40,666 bases of DNA from a virus. Taxonomy: Duplodnaviria; Heunggongvirae; Uroviricota; Caudoviricetes. Where the stretch lies: positions 1-40,666 of IMG/VR virus record IMGVR_UViG_2563366836_000013; one strand, 5' to 3'. Every line of letters starts with the position of its first letter. The first letter of the stretch is position 1. Of this stretch, positions 25,831 to 32,760 are shown piece by piece. The position numbers and the translations under genes were made by a program. Below the pieces are notes generated by a model. It did no database searches. It was given only the letters and a program-made list of their open reading frames with translations, and was not told where the DNA came from.

Positions 25831-27310
25831 CACCATTCCGTCGAATACGCTGGTTCCGTTGTTTTATGCGGAAATGGATAACCAGGCGGCGAATACTGCA
25901 CAGGACAGCGGAGCATCGTTGCTGATTGGTCACGCCAATAACGGTGCAGAGATTGTTGCCAACAGTCTGGTGCTGATGCCGTCGGCAGACTATGCACGCC
26001 AGATTTGTGGTGCGGGAAGTCAGCTGGCGCGTATGGTCGAGGCTTATCGCCAGACCGACCCGTTTGGCGAGCTGTATGTGATTGCCGTTCCGGAAGCCGC
26101 AGGCGCGGCGGCAACGGTTACTCTGACGGTGACCGGGGCGGCAACCGAAACCGGCACGGTGAATGTGTATGTGGGACATACCCGCGTGCAGGCACCGGTG
26201 ACCAACGGCGATAACGTCGCGACCATTGCCAGCAGTATCCAGGATGCTATCAATGCCGTTCCGGCCCTGCCGTTTACGGCCTCATTTTCGGCTGGCGTGG
26301 TCACACTGACCGCGCGTCATAAGGGACTTTGCGGGAATGAAATTCCTGTCAGCCTCAATTACTACGGCTTTGGTGGGGGCGAAGTGCTGCCAGCGGGTGT
26401 ACAGATTGCTGTGGCGACGGGTACCGCCGGAACGGGCGCTCCTGTTCTCACCGGTGCGGTGGCTGCAATGGCGGATGAGCCGTTTGATTATATCGGTCTG
26501 CCGTTCAACGACACGGCCTCCGTTAACACGCTGGTGACCGAGATGAACGATACCAGCGGTCGCTGGAGCTATGCGCGTCAGCTGTATGGTCATGTGTATA
26601 CGTCAAAGACCGGTACGCTGTCAGAACTGGTGACCGCAGGTGACCAGTTTAACCAGCAGCACATTACCCTGGCGGGGTACGAAAAAGAAACCCAGACGCC
26701 TGCCGACGAGCTGGCGGCAAGCCGTACCGCCCGCGCAGCGGTGTTTATCCGCAACGATCCGGCACGTCCCACGCAGACCGGTGAGCTGGTGGGTATGCTG
26801 CCTGCGCCGAAGGGGAAACGGTTCACGATGACCGAGCAGCAGACCCTGTTGTCTCATGGCGTGGCAACGGCGTATGTCGAAAGCGGGGTGCTGCGCATTC
26901 AGCGTGATGTCACCACGTACAGGAAAAATTCTTACGGGGTTGCGGATAACAGCTACCTCGACAGCGAGACGCTGCATACCAGTGCGTATGTACTGCGCAA
27001 ACTGAAATCCGTCATTACCAGTAAGTACGGGCGTCACAAGCTTGCCAGCGACGGTACCCGCTTTGGTCCCGGTCAGGCGATTGTCACCCCGGCGGTAATC
27101 AAAGGGGAACTGCTGGCAACCTACCGTCAGCTTGAGCGTGCGGGGATCGTGGAAAACTACGAACTGTTTAAGCAGTACCTGGTTGTGGAGCGTGATGCCA
27201 GCGATCCGAACCGCCTGAACACGCTGTTCCCGCCTGACTATGTTAACCAGTTGCGTGTTTTTGCCGTGGTTAACCAGTTCCGTCTTCAGTATTCAGAGGA
27301 GTCTGCATAA
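25814..27310 (+). CDS. Contractile tail sheath protein (Mu gpL-like)
   Basis: 498 aa, sheath-like sequence and size; followed by the tube gene. Confidence 0.88.
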   Translation: MTISFNTIPSNTLVPLFYAEMDNQAANTAQDSGASLLIGHANNGAEIVANSLVLMPSADYARQICGAGSQLARMVEAYRQTDPFGELYVIAVPEAAGAAATVTLTVTGAATETGTVNVYVGHTRVQAPVTNGDNVATIASSIQDAINAVPALPFTASFSAGVVTLTARHKGLCGNEIPVSLNYYGFGGGEVLPAGVQIAVATGTAGTGAPVLTGAVAAMADEPFDYIGLPFNDTASVNTLVTEMNDTSGRWSYARQLYGHVYTSKTGTLSELVTAGDQFNQQHITLAGYEKETQTPADELAASRTARAAVFIRNDPARPTQTGELVGMLPAPKGKRFTMTEQQTLLSHGVATAYVESGVLRIQRDVTTYRKNSYGVADNSYLDSETLHTSAYVLRKLKSVITSKYGRHKLASDGTRFGPGQAIVTPAVIKGELLATYRQLERAGIVENYELFKQYLVVERDASDPNRLNTLFPPDYVNQLRVFAVVNQFRLQYSEESA

Positions 27311-27666
27311 TGGCCCGTATCGGGGGAACCTGTTATTTCAAAATTGACGGTCAGCAGCTATCGCTGACCGGCGGCATTGAGGTGCCCATGAACAGGACGG
27401 TCAATGATGACATCATCGGCCTGGACGGTTCAGTGGACCGCAAGGAAACTCACCGTGCGCCTTATGTCAAAGGGACCTTCAAGGTGCCGAAGAATTTTCC
27501 GGTGAGCAAAATCACCTCGTCTGATGAGATGACCATCACTGCTGAGCTGGCGAACGGTCAGGTCTATGTATTGTCGTCAGCCTGGCTGCACGGCGAAGCG
27601 AACCATAATGCCGAAGAAGGCACGGTTGATCTTGAGTTCCACGGTGAAGAAGGGGATTACCAGTAA
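27310..27666 (+). CDS. Tail tube protein (Mu gpM-like)
   Basis: 118 aa, TAATG-coupled to sheath. Confidence 0.8.
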   Translation: MARIGGTCYFKIDGQQLSLTGGIEVPMNRTVNDDIIGLDGSVDRKETHRAPYVKGTFKVPKNFPVSKITSSDEMTITAELANGQVYVLSSAWLHGEANHNAEEGTVDLEFHGEEGDYQ

Positions 27667-27935
27667 TGAAAGAGCTTGAGTTAAAGAAACCGATTACCGC
27701 TCATGGCGAGACACTCTCCGTACTGGAGTTTGATGAGCCCACCGGGAAAGATGTCCGCGAGCTGGGGTATCCCTACCAGATGAATCAGGATGAGTCCGTC
27801 AGACTTCTGGCGCATGTTGTATCGAAATACATTGTGCGGCTGGCGAAAGTGCCGCAAAGCTCTGTCGACCAGATGTCTCCGGCAGACCTGAATGCAGCGG
27901 CGTGGCTTGTGGCTGGTTTTTTCCTCCAGGCCTGA
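27666..27935 (+). CDS. Tail assembly chaperone (G-like)
   Basis: 89 aa directly upstream of the tape measure gene; contains slippery T_TTT_TTC near its 3' end. Confidence 0.6.
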   Translation: MKELELKKPITAHGETLSVLEFDEPTGKDVRELGYPYQMNQDESVRLLAHVVSKYIVRLAKVPQSSVDQMSPADLNAAAWLVAGFFLQA

Positions 27936-28090
27936 CGGCTGAATACCTCACTGATCGCTTCTTTGACTGCGCCAGCTACTGGCGCATTAATCCCTTCGAA
28001 TTGCTGAATATGCCGATCAGTGAAATTCCCTTGCTGGTCAGTCAGGCAAACAGGATAGAGCAGGAGAAACGCGCACATGGCGGAATTTGA
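27902..28090 (+). CDS. Frameshift extension of the tail assembly chaperone (GT-like, -1 frame)
   Basis: -1-frame ORF overlapping the chaperone 3' end and the tape measure start; accessed via the TTTTTTC heptamer at 27917-27923. Confidence 0.45.
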   Translation: MACGWFFPPGLTAEYLTDRFFDCASYWRINPFELLNMPISEIPLLVSQANRIEQEKRAHGGI

Positions 28091-29909
28091 GCTTAAGGCG
28101 TTGATCACCGGTGTCGACAGGCTTTCTCCCGCGCTGTCGAAAATGCAAAAGAAAATCCGGGGATTTAAACGCCAGGCGGAAGAAGCGTCACAGGGTGGGC
28201 TGGCGCTTGGAGGCGGACTGGCAGCGGGTCTGACGCTTTCCCTGAAATCTTATGCCGATCAGGAAAACGCCGCCACCGGGCTGAAAGTCGCCATGATGGA
28301 TGCGAACGGCGAGGTTGGAAAGAGCTTTCAGGACATCAATAAACTGGCTATTGGCCTGGGTAATCAGCTACCCGGTACAACGGCTGATTTCCAGAACATG
28401 ATGCAGATGCTGGTGCGTCAGGGGATCCCGGCAGAAAACATTCTTGGCGGTGTGGGTAAAGCGACAGCTTATCTTGCGGTACAACTGAAAAAAACACCGG
28501 AAGCGGCTGCCGAGTTTGCCGCAAAGATGCAGGATGCTACCGGAACGGCGTCAAAAGACATGATGGGGCTGTTCGACACTATCCAGAAGGCGTTTTATCT
28601 GGGCGTTGACGATACCAACATGTTGTCCTTCTTCACTAAAACCAGCTCTGTTCTGAAGATGGTGAACAAGGACGGTCTTCAGGCTGCACAGAGCCTTGCC
28701 CCCATCAGCGTCATGATGGATCAGATGGGGATGAACGGGGAGTCGGCAGGTAACGCCCTGCGAAAAGTTATCCAGTCCGGATTAAGCGTTAAGAAAATCA
28801 GGGACGTCAATAAAATCATGGCCCGCCAGAAACTCGGGGTACAGCTCGATTTTACTGACGGCAAAGGGAGTTTTGGCGGTCTTGATAACATGTTCAGGCA
28901 ACTGGCAAAGCTGCGAAAACTGACCGACGTTAAGCGAACAGGCGTACTTAAGGCAATATTTGGTGATGATGCCGAAACCCTTCAGGTGGTCAATGCACTA
29001 ATCGATAAAGGAAAGGATGGCTACGATCAGATCCAGCAGAAGATGAATAAACAGGCCAGCCTGAATAAACGTGTTCAGGCTCAGCTTGGTACGCTGTCCA
29101 ACCTGTGGGAGGCAATGACGGGGACCGCAACTAACGGTCTTGCAGCTATTGGCGGCGCATTTTCTGGTGACGCCAAAAATATCACGCAGTGGCTGGGGGA
29201 GTTGGGGGAGAAATTCACGAAGTTTGCGGATGAAAATCCCCGGGTTATTCGCGGCGTCGTCGGGCTTGCTGCCGGTCTTGCGATTCTGAAACTGGGATTG
29301 ATGGGCGTTGGCGGTGCCATCAGTATTGTCAGCAGGATCATGTCGATGACGCCGATTGGCATGATTGCGACGGCGATAGCCCTGGCTGCGGGATTAATTA
29401 TCACTAACTGGGATGTTGTCGGACCTTATTTTAAGAAACTCTGGGAAACCATTGGTCCTTATTTTGAGGCTGGCTGGGAACTCCTTAAGAAAGTTTTTGC
29501 CTGGTCGCCGCTGGGGATGGTGATCAATAACTGGGGACCGGTTGTTAAGTGGTTTCAGGATATGTGGGACAAGCTGAAGCCAATTATTGAGTGGTTTACC
29601 GACAGTTCCGGTGACACGGTCGATGCCATTAACTCTGCGCAGTGGGGCGCGGGTGCTTATGATGCTTATGGGACGGGAATACCGGCGCGGGGATACACAC
29701 CTTATCCGGCGGTGGATCCGGCTCAGTCAAACAACGCCTCCGATGCCACAGGCCCGAATCCCTTCATGATTAACAAAGCTTCTGCGCCAAAAGTTGATGG
29801 CGAGATCAAGGTTTCATTTATGAATATGCCACCAGGTATGCGGGTTACGGAAACACGTTCCAGTGGCATTGATATTAATCACGATGTTGGGTACACCAGA
29901 TTTAGGTAA
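28077..29909 (+). CDS. Tail tape measure protein
   Basis: 610 aa, helical with C-terminal hydrophobic segments; position after chaperone. Confidence 0.85.
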   Translation: MAEFELKALITGVDRLSPALSKMQKKIRGFKRQAEEASQGGLALGGGLAAGLTLSLKSYADQENAATGLKVAMMDANGEVGKSFQDINKLAIGLGNQLPGTTADFQNMMQMLVRQGIPAENILGGVGKATAYLAVQLKKTPEAAAEFAAKMQDATGTASKDMMGLFDTIQKAFYLGVDDTNMLSFFTKTSSVLKMVNKDGLQAAQSLAPISVMMDQMGMNGESAGNALRKVIQSGLSVKKIRDVNKIMARQKLGVQLDFTDGKGSFGGLDNMFRQLAKLRKLTDVKRTGVLKAIFGDDAETLQVVNALIDKGKDGYDQIQQKMNKQASLNKRVQAQLGTLSNLWEAMTGTATNGLAAIGGAFSGDAKNITQWLGELGEKFTKFADENPRVIRGVVGLAAGLAILKLGLMGVGGAISIVSRIMSMTPIGMIATAIALAAGLIITNWDVVGPYFKKLWETIGPYFEAGWELLKKVFAWSPLGMVINNWGPVVKWFQDMWDKLKPIIEWFTDSSGDTVDAINSAQWGAGAYDAYGTGIPARGYTPYPAVDPAQSNNASDATGPNPFMINKASAPKVDGEIKVSFMNMPPGMRVTETRSSGIDINHDVGYTRFR

Positions 29910-29940: not shown

Positions 29941-30351
29941 TTACTGTGCGAACACGCAATTTCGGCCTGATGGGGAGCCGACAATTCTGGACATTTTTCC
30001 GCAAATAACAGTTACTTGTTCTCCTTTTTTAAGAGCAGCAGCTGTTGATTTTTCAGAGTCTTGCATCTCCATTCTTGCTGGCATGAATTCATTTTCAGTT
30101 CTGAATTTAATAATTATAGAGTCAGTAAAGTCCTTATCAATGGATTGTACGATACCTCTAACGGCGATTAATTTACCTTTTAACTGTTCATCGGTAGCGA
30201 CTTCATTTTCTTCATACTCTTTAAACAGCTGTCGAGCAGTAGTGTTGTAGATTTCTTTTTGCGGTGCCGCAGCTTCCGTATCGGATGAGTATGAAGAATT
30301 AGAGCCTTTATCGTTACCAGTAAATATTACTACTGATAATAAATATGGGAC
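29941..30351 (-). pseudogene. 5'-truncated OB-fold (tRNA_anti-like / BOF-type) gene without start codon
   Basis: Minus-strand frame open for 136 codons: ...LLSVVIFTGNDKGS...ARQLFKEYEENEVATDEQLKGKLIAVRGIVQSIDKDFTDSIIIKFRTENEFMPARMEMQDSEKSTAAALKKGEQVTVICGKMSRIVGSPSGRNCVFAQ*; no ATG/GTG/TTG before an internal Met; in-frame stop immediately upstream; AT-rich. Confidence 0.45.
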
Positions 30352-30355
30352 TTAT

Positions 30356-31681
30356 ATGACGTGGAAAGACAGACTTCAGGACGCGTCATTTCGCGGCGTG
30401 CCGTTTAAGGTTGAAGAAGAAAGTGCGGGAACCGGTCGCCGTGTGGAAACACATGAATACCCGAACCGCGACAAACCCTATACCGAAGACCTGGGGAAAA
30501 TCACTTTTCGCCCGTCCATCACGGCTTATGTGGTGGGAGATGACTGCTTTGACCAGCGCGATCGCCTGATTGACGCGCTGAATAAACCCGGTCCCGGCAC
30601 GCTTGTCCATCCGACATACGGTGAGCTGAAAGTCTGTGTTGACGGAGAAGTTCGGGTCAGCACATCGAAGAGTGAAGGGCGTATTGTCCGCTTTGACCTG
30701 AAGTTTGTCGAAGCGGGAGAACTCTCTTACCCCACTTCAGGTGCGGCGACGGCGCAGACGCTGATGTCATCCTGTTCTGCACTGGATGACTGCATCAGTG
30801 ACAGCTTCAGAGGTTTCAGTATCGATGGCGTGGCGGATTTCGTGCAGAACGACGTCGTCGGTAATGTCAGCACAATGCTTGGGTATGTTTCTGATGCGAT
30901 GAAAGTGGTGGATTCTGCCGTATCGGATGCTGCCAGGCTGTTGCAGGGGGATATCTCGGTACTTCTGCCGCCGCCATCGTCAGGCAAAAATTTCGTTGAG
31001 CAGGTGCAGAAAATGTGGCGTACCGGGAAACGCCTTTATGGTAACGCCAGCGACCTGGTCACCATGATCAAAACGCTTTCCGGTGTCAGCCTCGGCAGCG
31101 ATCTGCAACCGCGCGGCGTCTGGAAAACGGACAGTAAAACCACCGCCACGGCTACGCAGCAGCGTAACGTGGTTGCCAGCACCCTTCGTACGACCGCAAT
31201 CAGCGAAGCGGCGTATGCCGTCACCCGATTGCCTGCGCCAACAACTTCCGCGGTGATGCAGAATGCCGCAGTGGGGCAGGCAACAACACCTGCGCAGAGC
31301 ACTGGCTGGCCTTCCGTCACGCATCCGGCACTGAACAATGCACCGACGGTGAAAAACACAGTTGACCTGCCGACGTGGGAAGAACTGACTGACATTCGCG
31401 ACACACTGAATACGGCAATTGATAAGGAGTTGTCCCGTACAACCAGTGATGCGCTGTTTCTGGCGCTGCGCCGGGTGAAAGCAGATCTGAATGCGGATAT
31501 CAACACGCGCCTTGAACAGTCTGCACGGATCATTCAGCGCACGCCGGATGAGGTTTTACCCGCGCTGGTGCTGGCGGCGACCTGGTTTGATAACGCGGCG
31601 CGTGACGCGGACATTATCCGGCGTAATGCCATTACGCATCCCGGATTTGTGCCGGTGATCCCTCTGAAGGTGCCAGTGTAA
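30356..31681 (+). CDS. DNA circularisation protein (Mu gpN-like) of the baseplate
   Basis: 441 aa, N-terminal MTWKDRLQDASFRGVPFKVEE... typical of Mu N-like proteins. Confidence 0.8.
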   Translation: MTWKDRLQDASFRGVPFKVEEESAGTGRRVETHEYPNRDKPYTEDLGKITFRPSITAYVVGDDCFDQRDRLIDALNKPGPGTLVHPTYGELKVCVDGEVRVSTSKSEGRIVRFDLKFVEAGELSYPTSGAATAQTLMSSCSALDDCISDSFRGFSIDGVADFVQNDVVGNVSTMLGYVSDAMKVVDSAVSDAARLLQGDISVLLPPPSSGKNFVEQVQKMWRTGKRLYGNASDLVTMIKTLSGVSLGSDLQPRGVWKTDSKTTATATQQRNVVASTLRTTAISEAAYAVTRLPAPTTSAVMQNAAVGQATTPAQSTGWPSVTHPALNNAPTVKNTVDLPTWEELTDIRDTLNTAIDKELSRTTSDALFLALRRVKADLNADINTRLEQSARIIQRTPDEVLPALVLAATWFDNAARDADIIRRNAITHPGFVPVIPLKVPV

Positions 31682-32760
31682 TGAACGATAACGTCACGCT
31701 ACGGGTAAATGGCCGGGAGTGGAATGGCTGGACATCGGTGCGCATCGGTGCCGGTGTTGAACGACTGGCGCGGGATTTCAGTGTGGAGATCACTCGCCAG
31801 TGGCCGGGAGATGAGGGTATCACCACGCTTCAGCCGCGCATTAAAAACGGTTCAAAAGTGGAAGTGCTGATTGGTGATGAGCTGGTGATCACCGGCTGGG
31901 TGGAGGCGACTCCCGTTCGTTACGATGCCCGTTCGGTCAGCACCGGTATTGCCGGACGTAGTCTGACGGCTGACCTGATTGACTGTGCAGCCGAACCGAC
32001 ACAGTTTAACGGACGCTCGCTGGTGCAGATTGCGCAGGCGCTTGCTGCGCCTTTCGGCATTGAGGTGGTGAACAGCGGTGCGCCGTCGGGTGTTATTCCT
32101 GATGTTCAGCCTGATCACGGTGAAACGGTGATTGAGGTAATCAACAAAATACTCGGTCAGCAGCAGGCGCTGGCTTATGACGACCCGCACGGCAGGCTGG
32201 TGATTGGTGGTATTGGCTCAACGCGGGCACATACCGCGCTGGTACTCGGGGAAAACATCCTTTCCTGCGATACGGAGAAGAGTATCCGGGAGCGGTTTTC
32301 TGTTTACCAGGTGGCGGGGCAGCGTGCCGGAAACGACGATGATTTCGGTGAGGCCACCACCACCGCGCTGCGGGCCCGCACAGAGGACGCATTTATTGCC
32401 CGTTACCGTCCGATGTATATCAGGCAGACAGGGCAGGCTACGGGGGCAGGCTGTATTGCCCGTGCGGACTTTGAAGCCCGACAACGGGCGGCGCGGACGG
32501 ATGAAACCACCTATGTGGTGCAGGGCTGGCGACAGGGTAACGGTACGCTGTGGCAGCCCAACCAGCGGGTGATTGTCTTTGATCCGGTCTGTGGTTTCGA
32601 CAACACCGAACTGCTTGTTTCGGAAGTCACGTTTACTCAGGACCAGAACGGCACCCTGACGGAAATCCGTGTCGGCCCACCAGATGCTTATCTGCCTGAA
32701 CCCGAAGCCCCCGGCGCGCGGAAAAAGAAAAAAGCCAGAGTACAGGAGGACCCGTTCTGA
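31681..32760 (+). CDS. Baseplate hub / tail protein (Mu gpP-like, P2 gpD-like)
   Basis: 359 aa, TAATG-coupled; position and similarity to Mu P-like tail proteins. Confidence 0.75.
   Translation: MNDNVTLRVNGREWNGWTSVRIGAGVERLARDFSVEITRQWPGDEGITTLQPRIKNGSKVEVLIGDELVITGWVEATPVRYDARSVSTGIAGRSLTADLIDCAAEPTQFNGRSLVQIAQALAAPFGIEVVNSGAPSGVIPDVQPDHGETVIEVINKILGQQQALAYDDPHGRLVIGGIGSTRAHTALVLGENILSCDTEKSIRERFSVYQVAGQRAGNDDDFGEATTTALRARTEDAFIARYRPMYIRQTGQATGAGCIARADFEARQRAARTDETTYVVQGWRQGNGTLWQPNQRVIVFDPVCGFDNTELLVSEVTFTQDQNGTLTEIRVGPPDAYLPEPEAPGARKKKKARVQEDPF

Follow-up and report, generated by a model that had tools for sequence, protein, structure and literature searches.

Sequence evidence for a P2-type programmed −1 ribosomal frameshift in the tail assembly chaperone gene of SfV-like prophages

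A frameshift located between the genes for the major tail protein and the tape measure is conserved, according to the accounts of Xu 2004 given in PMC2628397 and PMC3091744. In phage lambda, whose tail is non-contractile, a low-frequency −1 slip at G_GGA_AAG, shortly before the upstream ORF ends, produces gpGT, which shares its N-terminus with gpG and whose extension runs up to the tape measure gene (Levin 1993; Xu 2004, 2013, 2014, as cited in PMC5009743). G is presumed to coat the tape measure protein and T to recruit the tube protein. By the figures quoted in PMC5009743, the G:GT ratio of lambda is about 30:1 and sites of the P2 type are two- to threefold more efficient. In phage P2, the corresponding pair of tail chaperones is E and E+E′ (Christie et al. 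2002, as cited in PMC3091744), and the RefSeq record NC_001895 annotates a −1 frameshift at GGTTTTTTG, yielding E of 91 aa and E+E′ of 142 aa. P2-like phages are reported to have no downstream structure (PMC3091744). In Mu, an ORF in an alternative frame occupies the roughly 144 nt ahead of the tape measure gene, the +1 frame being reached there by a −2 shift (PMC2628397, PMC5009743). At the bacterial sites of dnaX, IS3 and IS911, tRNAs slip in tandem on an X_XXY_YYZ heptamer that is accompanied by a Shine–Dalgarno (SD)-like element 6–17 nt 5′ and/or a hairpin or pseudoknot 5–9 nt 3′. Here, we describe a prophage locus that, judging from sequence comparison, very probably undergoes a programmed −1 ribosomal frameshift of the G/GT type in its P2 E/E+E′ form.

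The DNA analyzed, referred to below as the window, is the whole stretch of 40,666 nucleotides of IMG/VR record IMGVR_UViG_2563366836_000013. It is a prophage resembling SfV, SfI and SfII: a query covering 27310–28400 is 98–99% identical to these phages and 100% identical to several Escherichia coli chromosomes, with matches in 1,090 of 5,426 complete E. coli genomes. The features of its tail region are collected in Table 1. On the minus strand at 29941–30327 there is in addition an antisense gene for an "OB-fold protein" (PGAP WP_071593209), which has no entry in the ORF list because its ATT start is non-canonical. It lies in an AT-rich island (36–40% GC) with the tape measure gene on one side and the gp43-like gene on the other, and looks like a moron inserted in the tail operon.

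Table 1. Features of the tail region of the window.
Feature	Position	Strand	Evidence and remarks
Tail sheath gene, 498 aa	25814–27310	+	Pfam Phage_sheath_1, Phage_sheath_1C, Phage_sheath_domII
Tail tube gene, 118 aa	27310–27666	+	Pfam Tail_tube, E=2.4e-33; stop overlaps chaperone ATG (TAATG)
Zero-frame tail assembly chaperone ORF (G/E-like), 89 aa	27666–27935	+	Pfam PF10109 Phage_TAC_7; phrog_166 "tail protein"
Slippery heptamer T_TTT_TTC, zero-frame codons GGT TTT TTC	27917–27923	+	Sequence; conservation in relatives
−1 frame extension (T/E′-like), 55 codons + stop 28088–28090	27923–28090	+	Conserved peptide; substitution bias; phrog_32181
8-bp GC-rich hairpin TGCGCCAG-cta-CTGGCGCA	27968–27986	+	Inside −1 segment; −12.9 kcal/mol
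SD-like AGGAG of tape measure gene	28062–28066	+	Within end of −1 segment; 10 nt 5′ of ATG 28077
Tape measure protein gene, 610 aa	28077–29909	+	Pfam PhageMin_Tail, E=1.6e-26
Mu gp43-like DNA circularization protein gene	30356–31681		Pfam
Mu gp44-like hub gene	31681–32760		Pfam

As in G/GT loci, two overlapping ORFs lie between the tube and tape measure genes. The upstream one is a member of the PF10109 family, matching the profile with 60.3 bits (cutoff 25; E=1.9e-16) over positions 2–78 of 79. It runs from ATG 27666 to TGA 27933–27935 and ends with the codons GCT GGT TTT TTC CTC CAG GCC TGA. The slippery sequence is in the correct phase, within a zone where both frames are open: (27917−27666) mod 3 is 2, so that the codons read GG[T] TTT TTC, which is the X_XXY_YYZ pattern, and 9 nt separate the heptamer from the zero-frame stop. 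The −1 frame stays open from 27794 until its TGA at 28088–28090, its last 14 nt being shared with the tape measure gene. In the +1 frame, reading would be blocked 7 nt past the zero-frame stop, and therefore only a −1 shift is possible at this ORF. Another candidate slip site, GGGAAAG at 27744, is in the wrong phase and 5′ of a −1 stop, and was rejected. The preliminary description of this DNA had proposed a G/GT-type frameshift from an 89-aa chaperone ORF ending at 27935, an in-frame T_TTT_TTC about 10 nt before its stop, a −1 ORF reaching 28090 over the tape measure start and a fusion of about 140 aa. Its coordinates are correct, the phase stands and the predicted fusion comes to 86 + 55 = 141 aa; the proposed class is borne out by the family membership of the chaperone, its position between the tube and tape measure genes, the conservation of heptamer and −1 peptide, and the alignment with the P2 site.

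P2 offers the closest comparison. Its E protein likewise belongs to PF10109 and occupies the same interval between the tube and tape measure genes, the lengths of 91 and 142 aa corresponding to 89 and 141 aa here; the shift is −1 and the extension overlaps the tape measure start in both. In a profile alignment, the P2 fusion and that predicted for the window are collinear with their slip sites in register, GGT TTT TTG in P2 and GGT TTT TTC here standing at the aligned Gly-Phe position, and no structure lies at a stimulatory distance 3′ of either site. The two differ in the last base of the heptamer, which is G in P2 and C here (T in a sister clade). Because this base is C instead of G, the A-site tRNA would be tRNA-Phe with cognate re-pairing, not tRNA-Leu. 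The second half of the fusion is also different: the 55-aa extension has no match to PF06528 (Phage_P2_GpE) at E<=1, whereas P2 E+E′ scores 76.3 bits, and its similarity to P2 E′ in hhalign is weak (E=0.0026, probability 11%, collinear). Thus, this half is divergent from P2 E′. The tail module is P2-like in P2 but Mu-like here, the sheath, tube, gp43-like and gp44-like hub genes of the window all being of Mu type and having their nearest relatives in the tail genes of Mu. As in Mu, an ORF in an alternative frame occupies the gap ahead of the tape measure gene, and Mu gp41 scores 24.7 bits against PF10109, just under the cutoff of 25; however, gp41 is a protein of 144 aa of the family PF23746 (Gp41_Mu), which is not matched here, and the +1 frame used in Mu is the one that closes after 7 nt in the window. 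This element thus joins a tail module of Mu type to a slip site of P2 type. With lambda, the locus shares the logic and the position of the frameshift, but no sequence similarity was detected.

How much of this arrangement could be coincidence was examined by comparing the heptamer with its background and with its relatives. In-frame X_XXY_YYZ heptamers occur 34 times in the 12,116 codons of the window's ORFs (0.0028 per codon), so about 0.13 would be expected by chance in the 47-codon zone in which both frames are open, and only 1 of the 34 is followed by at least 55 open −1 codons. In a single sequence, a heptamer together with an open −1 frame is suggestive only. It is conservation across relatives that takes the heptamer well beyond chance. 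The comparative set comprised 229 related loci, or 131 distinct sequences, from annotated phages, GTDB genomes and IMG/VR; an initial scan of viral contigs had returned near-identical E. coli prophages only, and the diversity came from two further scans with divergent queries. The hosts include many genera of Enterobacterales, Derxia (Burkholderiales) and a Methylococcales MAG, and protein identity falls to about 30–40% in some. T_TTT_TTC or T_TTT_TTT is in frame at the homologous Phe-Phe position in 120 of the 131 distinct relatives, and the loci L046 and L047 (Serratia, Yersinia), additional to these 120, have the same arrangement of Phe-Phe and −1 ORF by translation; three of the 131 are visibly decayed copies in insect endosymbionts. 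In-frame T_TTT_TTY at this position is found in seven divergent phages and 38 genome loci.

The conservation concerns nucleotides as well as amino acids. The codon before TTT specifies Gly, Arg, Asn, Ser or Val, but its third-position T is kept (GGT, CGT, AAT, AGT, GTT); the first Phe of the heptamer is TTT throughout, while the adjacent upstream Ala codon appears in all four synonymous forms. When parsimony steps were counted on a neighbor-joining tree of 107 distinct sequences of the closer clade, the three synonymous sites of the heptamer required 4, 0 and 1 steps, as against about 5–18 at other sites of conserved residues. The heptamer is not absolutely invariant, since GGG replaces GGT in 6 of the 131 distinct relatives to give G_TTT_TTY. 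Such variants (G_TTT_TTC or G_TTT_TTT), in which re-pairing in the P-site would be broken, have about four separate origins on the tree; those in the IMG/VR E. coli prophages L099, L105, L194, L068 and L224 lie at position 852 of each locus, equivalent to 27917 of the window. Genuine attenuation of the site, decay of the prophages or sequencing errors at a homopolymer may account for them. Also among the GGG variants, two IMG/VR loci (L154 and L155, 601–1026) carry an extra G (GGGTTTTTTCC) that creates a single ORF of 141 or 139 aa. The 141-aa form is identical to the fusion predicted for the window and is recorded at NCBI as KEN10546.1, a "mu-like prophage FluMu gp41 family protein". A prophage of this kind, if the extra G is real, would make the fusion only and no short chaperone.

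The −1 segment is itself a conserved coding sequence. Pairwise substitutions 3′ of the zero-frame stop number 664, 397 and 1304 at −1-frame codon positions 1, 2 and 3, a pattern that is the signature of translated sequence under purifying selection. The extension has eight invariant residues (A103, W106, N109, P110, A128, R130, I131 and E134), and the predicted fusions of seven phages are 138–141 aa long with no internal gaps and with invariant residues on both sides of the junction. The zero-frame tail past the slip site is unconstrained, with a length of 3 aa here, 8–9 aa in a sister group and 21–26 aa in the SfIV/phiP27/ST64B group. The −1 ORF of the relatives always ends at the tape measure start, either with an overlap of at most 13 nt or, as in L022–L024 and L028, slightly before it. 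In most relatives, its final codons AAT GGC TGA overlap the ATG GCT GAA that begins the tape measure gene. In the window, GCT is GCG (28077–28090); this change removes the −1 stop, and thus the extension is two codons longer and ends in HGGI. A 63-position PHROGs profile, phrog_32181, matches the extension with E=2.8e-39, and the members of this family appear to be frameshift extensions that were wrongly annotated as ORFs of their own.

These data bear on two other explanations of the locus. If heptamer and open −1 frame coincided by chance, the 141 nt between the chaperone stop and the tape measure gene would be an untranslated spacer, and both the expectation of about 0.13 heptamers in the overlap zone of one sequence and the weak shifting of the heptamer alone in reporters would be compatible with that. 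Coincidence would not keep the phase of the heptamer, the −1 peptide and coding-type substitutions together in relatives down to about 30–40% identity, and the saturated synonymous variation of these relatives argues against their not being independent, for example through one recent horizontal sweep. We regard chance as exceedingly improbable and, so far as sequence comparison goes, effectively refuted. A translated −1 segment could also be a small gene of its own, and in the record ON470584 a 62-aa gene is annotated from GTG 27902, a codon in the −1 frame 15 nt 5′ of the heptamer. Several records call a separate gene, many NCBI E. coli records among them, and PHROGs has given it a family. 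This highly improbable alternative meets the difficulty that no SD-like sequence precedes GTG 27902 or any start codon near the heptamer, and that no start is conserved: in 7 of 26 lineages ATG, GTG and TTG are wholly absent from the −1 ORF, and in most of the others the start codon lies at least 84 nt downstream, where its use would lose the residues that are most conserved. On the 5′ side of the heptamer, the open −1 frame is variable and of little length, and the peptide it would encode there is not conserved. An own start for the −1 ORF was rejected on this comparison of start codons and SD sequences across 26 lineages.

A shift into the −1 frame could also occur before translation. The conserved element is a homopolymeric run of six or seven T (T7 in the SfIV, phiP27 and ST64B clade), and if RNA polymerase added one U on the T6 run, the one-base insertion would put the downstream codons in the same −1 frame, and a fraction of the mRNAs would encode the fusion in one frame with no ribosomal shift. 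In E. coli genes, UUUUUUU occurs less often than expected in each of the three frames, possibly on account of such slippage (PMC4066793). This explanation seems very unlikely for three reasons. The homologous site in P2 is annotated as a translational frameshift in its RefSeq record. What is conserved along with the run is its phase and the preceding wobble T, which are relevant to the re-pairing of tRNA and not to polymerase. For E. coli RNA polymerase to slip efficiently, runs of roughly 8–9 or more are required, for which T6–7 is short. A programmed ribosomal frameshift remains the preferred reading.

An outline of the proposed frameshift is as follows. The majority of ribosomes would read 27666–27935 and release the 89-aa chaperone. 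A minority would move back by one base on U_UUU_UUC with tRNA-Phe on UUU in the P-site and on UUC in the A-site, and both tRNAs would re-pair perfectly on UUU UUU. Reading would then continue in the −1 frame from CCU at 27923 to UGA at 28088–28090. The predicted product is a fusion of 141 aa (about 15.9 kDa), consisting of the N-terminal chaperone domain and the 55-aa extension, with the sequence ...LVAGFF / PPGLTAEY...HGGI, the junction peptide ...AGFFPPGLTAEY... and, around the slip site, ...WLVAGFF-PPGLTAEYLTDR. A search of PDB sequences with the fusion alignment gave no meaningful match. By analogy with lambda gpG and gpGT, the shared N-terminal domain would coat the tape measure protein and the extension would recruit the tube protein so that the tube polymerizes around the tape measure, and neither the short chaperone nor the fusion would be retained in the virion. 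The first three codons after the predicted slip (27923–27931) encode Pro-Pro-Gly, a motif on which ribosomes stall without EF-P. The motif is not conserved, the relatives having PQG, PSG, PAG or PRD.

How efficient might the predicted slip be? Both U_UU.U_UU.C and U_UU.U_UU.U are among the shift-prone heptamers in E. coli (Sharma et al., PMC4066793), and reporter frameshifting on UUUUUUC is 0.12% without a stimulator, 0.89% with the IS911 stimulator and 7.6% with the IS3 pseudoknot (PMC4066793, supplementary table). Since UUUUUUC alone gives 0.12%, a ratio of short chaperone to fusion at the percent level would need an effect of context, and the native context probably raises the efficiency of the heptamer. 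Neither kind of stimulator known from dnaX, IS3 and IS911 is conserved here. The pseudoknot or stem-loop that the preliminary description suggested looking for did not turn up: folds of 27924–28010 and 27880–27990 contain no stable or conserved hairpin or pseudoknot 5–9 nt 3′ of the heptamer, and no conserved structure at this distance emerged when the 60 nt past the heptamer were folded in 27 sequences including P2, which agrees with what is reported for P2-like phages (PMC3091744). A 4-bp stem 5 nt 3′ of the heptamer in the window is not conserved. The z-scores of folds of 60–111 nt around the site are −1.89, −0.43 and +0.42 in the window and mostly about −1.7 to +0.4 in the relatives, reaching about −2.2 in L023 and −2.4 in L043, and an Rfam scan of 27500–28300 gave no relevant match. 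No SD-like element 5′ of the heptamer was seen by eye, the formal SD scan having covered candidate −1-frame starts only. Structure-less sites of the P2 type may depend on a further stimulator.

Three distant lineages, from uncultured proteobacteria, Derxia and Methylococcales, have strong GC hairpins 1–6 nt past the heptamer: those of L023 (1743+) and L028 (1743+) begin 1–2 nt past it, and that of L042 (1761+) is a 6-bp stem at 6 nt. The enterobacterial clade is unlike these, and stimulators may be lineage-specific.

One structure in the window deserves separate consideration. The perfect 8-bp hairpin within the −1 segment, whose codons are Cys-Ala-Ser-Tyr-Trp-Arg, lies 44 nt 3′ of the heptamer, a spacing too far for a canonical stimulator. 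In the closer clade, the four synonymous positions of its stem took 3, 3, 2 and 2 parsimony steps, compared with 8 at the synonymous loop position and 6–15 at flanking synonymous sites, a pattern resembling selection on structure. The comparison was made post hoc, it is not unusual for 40 kb to contain a perfect 8-bp hairpin, and the stem shows no compensatory changes; in lineages with Lys in place of Ser or Arg, several stem positions are mostly lost together. As a protein-binding-site test, the window was searched for further copies of the palindrome, and none was found within 3 mismatches. That the hairpin is under selection as RNA, and does not simply follow from the peptide sequence, is possible but rather improbable. 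It lies in a stretch that would be read only by the few frameshifted ribosomes. Conceivably, it modulates frameshifting at a distance, for example if a frameshifted ribosome stalled there and the next ribosome queued near the heptamer. It is also conceivable, as speculation, that the hairpin stabilizes the upstream mRNA for sheath, tube and chaperone relative to that of the tape measure and baseplate genes.

None of the RefSeq and GenBank records inspected for this prophage annotates a frameshift. PGAP/RefSeq gives the 89-aa "phage tail assembly protein" only and leaves the next 141 nt empty, ON470584 lists the −1 ORF as a separate hypothetical protein, the exact 62-aa −1 ORF is a "hypothetical protein" on 55 contigs, and phrog_32181 is of "unknown function" in PHROGs. 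A description of the frameshift was likewise not found in the literature searched for SfV, SfI, SfII, SfIV, ST64B or phiP27, and Xu 2004 may list SfV. The biology of G/GT-type frameshifting is textbook knowledge, and this locus is an ordinary, hitherto unannotated member of its class. The value of recognizing it is mainly one of annotation: annotating the fusion would correct the records and give phrog_32181 a function in a tail module carried by roughly a fifth of complete E. coli genomes and by the Shigella serotype-converting phages SfV, SfI and SfII. A new lesson may possibly be learned from how structure-less T-run sites gain their efficiency and whether the conserved hairpin contributes to it.
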